A program made the translations under genes and the position numbers. The notes under the pieces were generated by a model. It was not told where the DNA came from and searched no databases. It saw only the letters and a program-made list of their open reading frames with translations. A DNA stretch of 55,962 nucleotides, taken from Fonticula-like sp. SCN 57-25. Lineage: Eukaryota. Positions 36,896 through 39,191 of the stretch are shown piece after piece; positions within the stretch are counted from its first letter, which is position 1, and every line of letters starts with the position of its first letter. The stretch spans positions 1 through 55,962 of the forward strand of contig MEDX01000012.1 in NCBI GenBank assembly GCA_001724245.1, given 5' to 3'.

Positions 36896-37013
36896 TGACG
36901 TCATCAAACTGACCAATCAACGTTGCTTATCAATCCTGTAGCCAATCCGCCGTCGTAAAACAGAATCAAGTTGCCTTTTATGGTAATTGTAGGGCCATAT
37001 TTAAGTGACGTCA
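36896..37013. promoter_or_regulatory. Divergent promoter with two palindromic CRE sites and two CCAAT boxes
   Basis: TGACGTCA at 36896-36903 and 37006-37013; CCAAT at 36913 and 36942. Confidence 0.5.
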
Positions 37014-37108
37014 GAGGTTCCCGCGTGGCGCTCAATTCGCCTTTCCCGGCGCTTTCTCCGCGACGTGTTACCCGCCCGCCGAGAAAAGAAAGGAAGCGAG
37101 TTGCTGCC

Positions 37109-38942
37109 ATGGCCAAGCCCGTTCATAACGTACGCGCGCGGCTTCTTGCGCAGCACTCGTTCTTTCAGCGCTCATTTATCGGCTTGCTAGTTTGATAAGG
37201 ATGGCCTTACAATTCAGGAGCTGGTAGAGTCTGGCCAGGGCCTCACCTACGATGACTTTTTGGTTCTCCCCGGCTACATCGACTTTACTTCGGACAGCGT
37301 TGTCCTCACGTCCAAGCTTACGAAGAAGATTTCGCTCCGCACTCCGTTTGTCAGCTCGCCCATGGACACTGTGACCGAGGCCGACATGGCGATCAACATG
37401 GCCGTACGTGCTCTCGCATGGAGCACGTGGCAATGAAGTTGACACTCTGCTAGTTGATGGGTGGTATCGGTATTCTTCACCACAACTGCTCGATTGAGGA
37501 GCAGACCGAGATGGTTGAGACTGTCAAGGTGCGCCTGGGGCCAAGCTTTAGTGGGAAAGGGATTACACAAAAGGCGAGGATTAGATCGTTCCGTGCACCA
37601 CTCAGACTCCGCAATGGTGACTCACCGGATATACACTTCAGTCTTAATGAGCCTATTTCTTTACCTCTCTTTCTCTGCTTTTCCGTTTTCCTTTTTTGGA
37701 TACTTACCGTGGCTGTGTTCGAAGAAATACGAGAATGGCTTTATTACGAACCCCCAGACGCTGAGCCCCACGCACACCATTGCGGACGTGCTCGCGATCA
37801 AGAACAAGTTTGGTTTCTGCGGTGTTCCGATTACTGAGAACGGCAAGATGCGCAGCACGCTCGTCGGCATCGTGACTAGCCGCGACATTGACTTTATTGA
37901 GGACGAGACTGTTCTGCTCAAGGACGTCATGATCCCCTTCTCTGAGCTTGTTGTTGCGCGCGTCGGCGTCACCCTCGCCGAGGCGAACGAGATGCTCCGC
38001 CGCTCCAAGAAGGGCAAGCTCCCGATCATCGATGGCGACAACAAGCTTGTTGCCCTCATCTCCCGCTCTGACATGAAGAAGAACCGCGACTTCCCGCTCG
38101 CCTCCAAGGACGCGCACAAGTCGCTCCTCGTCGGCGCCGCCATTTCGACGCGCGAGGACGATCGCGTTCGCCTTGCGTCGCTCGTCAAGGCCGGTCTCGA
38201 CGTTTGCGTTATTGACTCGTCCCAGGGCAACTCTGTGTGGCAGGTCGACATGATCAAGCACATCAAGGCCACCTACCCCGACCTCCAGGTGATTGCCGGC
38301 AATGTTGTGACCCAGAGGCAGGCGCTTTCGCTGATCGAGGCTGGCGCTGATGCGCTCCGCGTCGGCATGGGCAGCGGCTCCATCTGCATCACGCAGGAGG
38401 TAATGGCGTGCGGCCGGCCGCAGGGCACCGCCGTGTACAAGGTCTCTCAGTTGGCGAGCCAGTATGGCGTCCCCGTCATTGCTGACGGCGGCGTCGGCAC
38501 TGTCGGCCACATTGCCAAGGCTCTCCTTATGGGCGCCAGCTGCGTCATGATGGGCTCGCTCCTCGCCGGCACCACCGAGGCCCCCGGCACCTACTTTTAC
38601 CACGACGGCAAGCGCGTCAAGAAGTACCGCGGTATGGGCTCGATCGACGCCATGGAGAAGGGCAAGAATTCGCAGAAGCGCTACTTTTCGGAGGGCGACC
38701 AGACGCTCGTCGCGCAGGGCGTGTCGGGCGCCGTCGTCGACAAGGGCTCCATCCGCAAGTTTGTCCCGTACCTCGTGACTGGCCTGCAGCACAGCCTCCA
38801 GGATATCGGATACGCCTCGGTCGATGCGCTCCAGGCGGCCGTTAACGCCCAGGAGGTCCGCTTTGAGAAGCGCACCGTCGCCGCGCAGGTTGAGGGTGGT
38901 GTGCACGGTCTCTTGTCCTATGAGAAGAGGCTCTTTTCGTAA
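37109..38942 (+). CDS. IMPDH: Inosine-5'-monophosphate dehydrogenase; 3 introns
   Basis: [24 protein letters not shown] pair, [11 protein letters not shown] (catalytic Cys), YRGMGS, YEKRLF. Introns 37130-37190, about 37404-37453, and 37529-37724. Confidence 0.97.
37572..37654 (+). ncRNA. Intronic box C/D snoRNA, dual guide (U32/snR40-like SSU guide plus an LSU guide)
   Basis: Terminal stem AGGC/GCCT; C box AGGATTA (37577-37583); guide CCGTGCACCACT + D' CAGA (37591-37606); C' ATGGTGA (37614-37620); guide CACTTCAGTCTT + D ATGA (37634-37650). The guides are antisense to conserved rRNA segments GGUGGUGCAUGG (SSU) and AAGACUGAAGUG (LSU), recalled from memory. Confidence 0.75.
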
Positions 38943-39191
38943 AGGAGAGGCCTTTGTGAGAGAGAGAAATTGAGTTATACTGGCTTTCTTTGTCCCTCTT
39001 TGGTTACCTTTCTTTATATACTTTACGTTCTAGTCAAATAAAAGCATTGTATTCAGTTATTTTATTGCTCGGCCACACTGTGCAGTAGGGGATTATCCAT
39101 AAGGTGGGGTTAACATGCTGGGAAAAGGGTTGTTTATATTTGCTGGCGGGATCGTTATGCAGCTGGCATTTTAATGATGACGGGTGAGAAG

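Follow-up and report, generated by a model that had tools for sequence, protein, structure and literature searches.

The third intron of an IMPDH gene on contig MEDX01000012.1 of Fonticula-like sp. SCN 57-25, analyzed here over a stretch of 55,962 nucleotides (nt; hereafter the window), contains an 83-nt unit (37572-37654, plus strand) that, when its sequence is read directly, shows the complete arrangement of a box C/D small nucleolar RNA (snoRNA). The boxes and terminal stem of the unit recur in two metagenomic homologues, and its two guides are complementary to small-subunit (SSU) and large-subunit (LSU) ribosomal RNA (rRNA), respectively. We consider it likely that the unit is a working intronic C/D snoRNA that methylates the equivalent of yeast 18S G1271 through its D' guide; its assembly into a particle, its processing from the intron, and the methylations at both predicted sites are what we infer from these features.

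A box C/D unit in an IMPDH intron

From its 5' end, the unit consists of the first strand of terminal stem I (AGGC, 37572-37575), a 3-nt loop (GAG), the sequence GAUUA, which together with the two preceding bases makes up box C (AGGAUUA, 37577-37583), a 7-nt spacer, the 12-nt guide 1 (CCGUGCACCACU, 37591-37602), and a box D' (CAGA, 37603-37606) that directly abuts this guide. A second 7-nt spacer, box C' (AUGGUGA, 37614-37620), a 13-nt spacer, the 12-nt guide 2 (CACUUCAGUCUU, 37634-37645), a single A, box D (AUGA, 37647-37650), and the second strand of stem I (GCCU, 37651-37654), which pairs with AGGC, complete the unit; all of these elements are on the plus strand. Guide 1, which serves D', is antisense to the SSU tract GGUGGUGCAUGG, and guide 2, which serves D, is antisense to LSU positions 1474-1485 (S. 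cerevisiae-like numbering). Each guide offers at least 10 nt of rRNA complementarity ending next to box D' or D, as scored on an S. cerevisiae-like 25S contig and on the register of curated SSU guides.

Neither terminal box matches the consensus (RUGAUGA for box C and CUGA for box D). AGGAUUA departs from it twice, with G in place of U at position 2 and U in place of G at position 6, and AUGA departs from it once. The tandem GA and the U of box C are kept, and the GA dinucleotides of boxes C and D can form two sheared pairs, followed by a U·U pair and then by a U-A pair where the consensus has G-C. The stem I pair next to the loop (C37575-G37651, the -1 pair) is also intact. In a yeast motif study, both G·A pairs and the -1 pair were needed for Snu13 binding (PMC8413462), and the unit has the stem I, 3-nt loop, tandem G·A pairs, and -1 pair expected of a terminal kink-turn by the standards of that study. 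A sequence closely resembling the box C variant (GGGAUUAC, 37559-37566) shortly precedes the box itself (GAGGAUUAG, 37576-37584); neither a box D nor a stem partner matches this sequence, and it probably arose by chance.

We searched for a relaxed version of this architecture in which neither guide was used, specifying a stem of 4 Watson-Crick pairs, a loop of 3 nt, GAUKA, 45-130 nt, NUGA whose N covaries with K, and the complement of the stem. Exactly one site, 37572-37654, was returned from both strands of the window, compared with a mean of 0.17 and a maximum of 2 in 100 dinucleotide shuffles, and the boxes, guides, and stem read as the initial annotation had described them. The same annotation had expected curated scanners to miss the unit, and Rfam indeed gave no match at gathering thresholds and, across the window, none at E ≤ 0.5. 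When a permissive scan was run locally, snoZ221_snoR21b gave the best match (16.1 bits, E 1, with a gathering score of 44), aligned on guide 1 and D'. This alignment placed box D at CUCUGC (37676-81), a position that we rejected as it has neither GA nor a stem partner. A minus-strand match to SCARNA18 (13.5 bits, E 3.8) was also rejected.

Homologues conserve the boxes and terminal stem

Metagenome contigs were scanned with a pattern made up only of guide 1 with D' and guide 2, which left boxes C, C', and D and the stem unrequired. The scan returned two loci, L001 and L002. In both, guide 1 is preceded at 9-11 nt by box C (AUGAUUAG), and both combine C AUGAUUA, a C' box (AUGGUGA in L001, AUGUUGA in L002), D AUGA, and a terminal stem directly next to the boxes, its 3-nt loop arranged as in the window. 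Box D' stands at the same place as in the window and reads CUGA in L001 and CAGA in L002. When the three sequences were aligned, each of the four stem I pairs varied on both strands, with pairing in 11 of 12 cells, a result matched by 6 of 500 shuffles; as a control, slid positions paired at 29-56%. Spacers and flanks are unconserved among the three. In Rfam, L001 scored 25.8 bits (E 0.013) against snoZ221_snoR21b and L002 scored 21 bits against snoMe18S-Gm1358, in both cases on guide 1 and D'. These homologues may already be members of the snR40 family of Canzler et al. (2018).

The genomic settings of the homologues differ from that of the window. The L002 snoRNA sits within an intron of 189 nt (760-948, GTAAGT...TAG), and its host gene encodes a LisH domain in the first exon (E 3e-9); the L001 snoRNA lies 83 nt upstream of an ACT-domain gene in divergent orientation. 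As the L001 and L002 contigs carry none of the IMPDH peptide motifs and the host in L002 is a gene with a LisH domain, the use of IMPDH as host is not conserved. A further C/D snoRNA candidate, with a canonical box C (AAUGAUGA) plus AUGGGAAUCUCUCUGA, is found at L002:398-457 (plus strand), upstream of the LisH coding exon. It scored 24.1 bits (E 0.69) against Rfam SNORD79, its guide string also occurs in Nc CD14 of Neurospora crassa (a U79 homologue, 26S-Am2288), and the LisH host gene may carry two snoRNAs.

The paired box change and Nc CD55

The N. crassa snoRNA Nc CD55 is a 137-nt intronic RNA that was found by cDNA cloning and northern analysis and was listed as 'Orphan' (Liu et al., 2009, Table 1, PMC2780460). 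Its sequence, as given in Additional file 1 of that paper, starts ...GAUGAUUAGA, has AUGCACCAC ~15 nt later, and continues through a long GC-rich insert and a C' box (UGAUGA) to the end ...CCACUUCUUUAUGAUUCCU (PMC2780460). We compared Nc CD55 with the window unit by eye from the printed supplement, with no computed alignment. The two RNAs share box C ...AUGAUUAGA, the guide core AUGCACCAC at the same distance from it, a C' box, an intronic location, and CCACUUC in the second guide region (CCACUUC...UUU), followed by box D AUGA. Nc CD55 differs in its greater length, in an insert of ~50 nt of GC-rich sequence between D' and C', and in a degenerate D' box, whereas the window has a G of its own at two places, position 2 of box C and, in place of A, the first base of guide 1. 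By eye, these two G differences are what sets the window apart from Nc CD55 across box C AUGAUUA(GA), box D AUGA, and AUGCACCAC. The second guide of Nc CD55 is without the AGUC part, and its LSU match is therefore no longer good.

U at box C position 6 and A at box D position 1 occur together in all four members: the window, L001, L002, and Nc CD55. The linked changes to which the initial annotation drew attention, G to U in box C and C to A in box D, are thus common to both metagenome homologues and to a snoRNA detected by northern analysis. Because L001, L002, and Nc CD55 carry the resulting U-A swap too, we regard it as a family trait and not as decay. The box variant is already in a published sequence, that of Nc CD55, where it went unremarked. 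Across fungal C/D snoRNAs, box C never varies in its first GA, 4.2% of box D sequences have another base, mostly A, in place of the initial C, and all other box positions show ≥99.7% conservation (Canzler et al., 2018, PMC5824354). By these statistics, box D AUGA is a known minority form and box C UGAUUA is rare. The same study found the family Nc_CD_55 (CD_55) only in Neurospora, and hence no target could be assigned to it (PMC5824354). We propose, from the sequence comparisons above, that the window snoRNA belongs, together with Nc CD55, to a fungal family characterized by C xUGAUUA and D AUGA; if Nc CD55 is a true homologue, both the family and its U-A pair would be old.

Guide 1 is in register for the equivalent of 18S G1271

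The fifth nucleotide upstream of D' (a C in CCGUGCACCACU) opposes the fifth G of GGUGGUGCAUGG, which is Gm1271 in yeast. The target of snR55 is the U two bases before this G, in agreement with the published 1269/1271 pair, as snR55 and snR40 modify 1269 and 1271 (PMC3116282). In snR40 (family CD_43), 18S-1271 is guided through the D' element (Canzler et al., 2018, PMC5824354), and a table from CLASH (crosslinking, ligation, and sequencing of hybrids) lists SNR40 with 18S-1271 and 25S-898. The string CACCACU followed by CWGA stands in an equal register in the Z221/R21b and Me18S-Gm1358 consensus sequences and in S. cerevisiae snR40 CLASH reads (GUGCACCAGUCUGA), which bears out the earlier assignment of guide 1 as an SSU guide of the snR40/U32 type. 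We take SNORD32A to be the human counterpart of snR40. The A-to-G change at the first base of guide 1 in the window keeps the pairing as G·U.

The window unit and snR40 are alike in having a D' guide for 18S Gm1271, in placing the C opposite the target G five nt from D', and in the order of box C, guide, D', and then an AUGG-type C'. snR40 differs in its box C, which is AUGACGA in the reads (not AUGAUUA), in its guide (UGUGCACCAGU; supplement of PMC6171561), and in its second target, 25S-U898; the D guide of the window is not a guide for that site and pairs best with 25S 1474-1485. The comparison with snR40 draws on fragments of reads, and any homology to it beyond the guide would be putative. 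In AUGACGA, C replaces the U of the U·U position, and the yeast Gm1271 guide is therefore also non-consensus, at another position than the Nc CD55 family (PMC6171561).

Two curated families show the same mixture of likeness and difference. Rfam RF00300 (snoZ221_snoR21b, plants) and RF00533 (snoMe18S-Gm1358, Drosophila) have a C/D layout, and both contain the guide plus D' string CAUGCACCACUCUGA in their consensus lines. By contrast, their boxes are canonical (GUGAUGA and CUGA), their second halves are different, and the scores obtained against them were 16-26 bits compared with gathering thresholds of 44 and 50, the score of the window placing it outside RF00300 by this measure. For N. crassa, the published snoRNA table has no guide for this 18S site and no match for '18S-Gm12' (PMC2780460). 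Since that table lists none, Nc CD55 may be the missing N. crassa guide for the equivalent of 18S Gm1271, an assignment that its guide core suggests.

Guide 2 pairs with an LSU tract

LSU rRNA was represented by 33 eukaryotic contaminant contigs (L003-L035) in bacterial or archaeal assemblies, all of which contain the tract opposite guide 2 by construction. Three contigs include the 25S 5' end, and counting from that end in locus L030 places the tract GAAGACUGAAGUGG at 25S 1473-1486. The L030 numbering gives C, A, and G at 1437, 1449, and 1450, which we take to be the yeast sites at those positions. The U24 sites of N. crassa, 1418 and 1430, have a 12-nt spacing that agrees with the 1437/1449 numbering (PMC2780460). 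Identification of the tract with the snR24/U24 site (C1437) was rejected, as the tract lies ~36 nt downstream of that nucleotide.

Duplexes were calculated with RNAduplex between the 18 nt upstream of box D and the L030 25S fragment, with 300 shuffled guides in each case. Guide 2 of the window paired with 25S 1474-1485 at -19.6 kcal/mol, that of L001 with 25S 1470-1485 at -21.8 kcal/mol, and that of L002 with 25S 1470-1488 at -27.7 kcal/mol; 0 of 300 shuffled guides were as good as any of these. The second guide had originally been described as antisense to LSU rRNA; the tract is present in eukaryotic LSU sequences, and judging from these duplexes we regard the LSU pairing as real and any methylation by guide 2 as putative. 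One base separates guide 2 from box D in the window (GUCUU to AUGA), compared with four in L001 and L002, and the nucleotide opposite the fifth position upstream of box D (D+5) is A1477 in the window versus A1474 in both homologues. The D+5 nucleotide had been predicted to be the A of GAC, which holds for the window (A1477), but the target nucleotide is not conserved. As D+5 differs in this way, LSU methylation is uncertain; a second activity of the snoRNA on LSU A1477 is possible, although we lean slightly against it.

No viral contig matched the LSU pattern. String searches of the literature with the LSU tract, guide 2, UGAUUAGA, and guide 1 gave only primers, small interfering RNAs, and unrelated text among the matches listed, and those on RiboMeth-seq in fungi gave nothing usable on the LSU site among the matches listed.

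The assemblies in which L003-L035 are filed as bacterial or archaeal sequence are isolates (Streptomyces, Streptococcus, Flavobacterium) and metagenome-assembled genomes. Over a 55-nt stretch around the match, several of the contigs are identical to contigs with an S. cerevisiae-like 25S 5' end, and their flanks are diverse. That 5' end is presumably that of S. cerevisiae 25S. The eukaryotic LSU rRNA in these assemblies looks like assembly contamination.

Host intron and source organism

The IMPDH gene occupies 37109-38942 on the plus strand of the window. Pfam IMPDH matches were found in exons 37191-37403 (E 8e-19) and 37725-38939 (E 5e-102), CBS was also matched, and a protein-atlas comparison confirmed the identity of the product. 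Intron 1 (37130-37190, 61 nt, GT..AG) is removed in contigs of two sequencing runs, intron 2 (37404-37453, 50 nt) was placed by comparing reading frames with the sequence, and intron 3 (37529-37724, 196 nt, GT..AG), the snoRNA host, is flanked by exons with Pfam IMPDH matches; all three are on the plus strand. Splicing of intron 3 restores the reading of the IMPDH protein across the exon junction, so the originally reported length of 196 nt is right, and within this gene the intron is ~3 times as long as the two others. A putative branch point known from its motif only (CUUAC, 37703-37707, plus strand) places the branch A 56 nt past the end of box D, compared with 55 nt in L002 (CUGAC), and the 3' splice site lies 74 nt beyond the end of box D in the window and 69 nt beyond it in L002. 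Mammalian intronic C/D snoRNAs have a preferred distance of ~50 nt to the branch point.

Seven sequencing runs contain parts of 37000-39000, none with half of the words, and the four that were compared are represented by assembled contigs. Contigs of run X7, whose kind is unstated, are identical to the window at 37443-37593 and 37637-37787 and partly cover intron 3. A single X7 contig (depth 7.7) differs from the window at 37099, where it reads T instead of A; this position shortly precedes 37109, the presumed start codon of IMPDH. In contigs of X2 (a soil metatranscriptome) and X3 (for which the RNA label is a guess), intron 1 is spliced without mismatches and is the only intron seen spliced; transcription by the organism, or by a strain almost identical to it, therefore takes place in at least one of the environments sampled.

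Among named organisms, the nearest relatives of the IMPDH product are from the chytrids Gaertneriomyces, Spizellomyces, and Quaeritorhiza (68-70% identity), followed at 66-70% by an aphelid, Mortierellomycota, Zoopagomycota, and animals (66-67% for animals). Only the window's own IMPDH protein exceeds 72% identity, and the source genome therefore seems to be without a close sequenced relative. By this protein comparison, the source organism is probably a deep-branching fungus.

Proposed mechanism and alternative explanations

In the explanation that we favor, splicing of the IMPDH transcript would allow an intron-encoded box C/D snoRNA of ~83 nt to be released from intron 3. Snu13, Nop58, Nop56, and the methylase Nop1/fibrillarin would assemble on a terminal kink-turn made up of stem I (AGGC/GCCU), the 3-nt loop, two sheared G·A pairs, the U·U pair, and the U-A pair that replaces the usual G-C, and exonucleases would trim the intron to the edges of this particle. 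The D' guide would pair with a universally conserved 18S tract, leading to 2'-O-methylation of the G equivalent to yeast Gm1271 (the snR40/U32 function), and the D guide would pair with LSU 1474-1485 and, if used for methylation, would have A1477 as its modified nucleotide.

Several points weigh against this explanation. Only three genomic sequences were compared, and guide conservation among them was imposed by the search pattern; rRNA pairing was judged on the rRNA of other organisms; stem I is only 4 bp; and methylation at the equivalent sites is unlisted in the N. crassa table (PMC2780460). The two guides also stand on different footing. It could be, and we would put this somewhat short of an even chance, that the RNA is a functional single-guide snoRNA in which only the D' guide directs methylation, and that the LSU tract either pairs without methylating or drifts, as a lineage-specific guide without a fixed target. 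The shift of D+5 from A1474 to A1477 among members fits such a snoRNA, as does Nc CD55, whose D guide, read by eye, matches LSU over only ~7 nt. In fungi, moreover, most C/D families are single-guide, with a second element that is functional in subsets of taxa and often lineage-specific (PMC5824354), and the N. crassa table lists no site at the equivalent 26S-Am145x (PMC2780460). Methylation through both guides, on the other hand, is favored by a duplex of 12-16 bp directly by box D in all three genomic members, the conservation of which was required by the search pattern, and by the fact that all three D+5 nucleotides are A.

Two further explanations would deny the unit a function altogether. 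A decaying copy of a snoRNA, with a G at box C position 2, a short stem, and a 3-nt deletion before box D, would form no stable small nucleolar ribonucleoprotein, and the SnoBIRD filter treats two departures in box C together with one in box D as a pseudogene signature for low-confidence predictions (PMC12309372), a rule that the window unit satisfies. Both the G at position 2 and the shorter spacer between guide 2 and box D are found in the window alone, the former among the four members and the latter in comparison with L001 and L002, and no contig from RNA-labelled runs falls on the snoRNA intron, although this absence is uninformative on expression. However, two of the three box departures are the conserved U-A pair of the family, the G·A pairs, the U·U pair, and the -1 stem pair are intact, both guides are uninterrupted, and the one change in guide 1 retains pairing. 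Nc CD50, a U24 homologue detected in N. crassa by northern analysis and reverse transcription, has box C AGGAUGA (PMC2780460), and G at position 2 is therefore compatible with accumulation. The distance to the branch point also matches that in the L002 intron, and the architecture search found no second copy within the window. We thus consider a pseudogene improbable. Chance resemblance within a long intron that contains no RNA gene is less credible still, to the point of being negligible. The blank Rfam result over the window would agree with it, as would the predicted fold, in which the terminal stem is part of the minimum-energy structure and the stability is no better than that of shuffles (z +0.95); fold energies of C/D snoRNAs usually do not go beyond those of shuffles. 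Against chance stand the single architecture site where 0.17 were expected before any guide was required, the register of guide 1, which is that of curated families, and the independent homologues with boxes and stem in the right places; the existence of L001 and L002 effectively refutes it. We conclude that the snoRNA is real and of an ordinary kind and that the original observation and its interpretation are essentially correct.

A broader proposal can be made that we think rather unlikely to hold in full. The U-A change would be the signature of an old fungal family ranging from a deep-branching chytrid-like fungus to Neurospora, CD55 would really be an 18S Gm1271 guide, and outside Neurospora the family would also direct an LSU 2'-O-methyl-A at 1474 or 1477, an indel beside box D having moved the target by three nucleotides. 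If true, this LSU methyl-A would be at a site not known in yeast.

Implications

Our understanding of how box C/D small nucleolar ribonucleoproteins work is unchanged by these results, and what they add is modest. They illustrate that a C/D snoRNA that fails strict box rules can be recognized by its guides and confirmed by comparison, whereas pipelines that score Hamming distance to RUGAUGA/CUGA would drop the unit or label it a pseudogene. With U-A naturally replacing the kink-turn pair beside U·U, the unit offers a probe of how strictly Snu13 and Nop58 read stem II, and guide 2 leads to the proposal of a testable and possibly lineage-specific LSU methylation. For the family itself, Nc CD55, which two papers left as an orphan confined to Neurospora, gains a likely function in guiding 18S Gm1271 and a much wider range.

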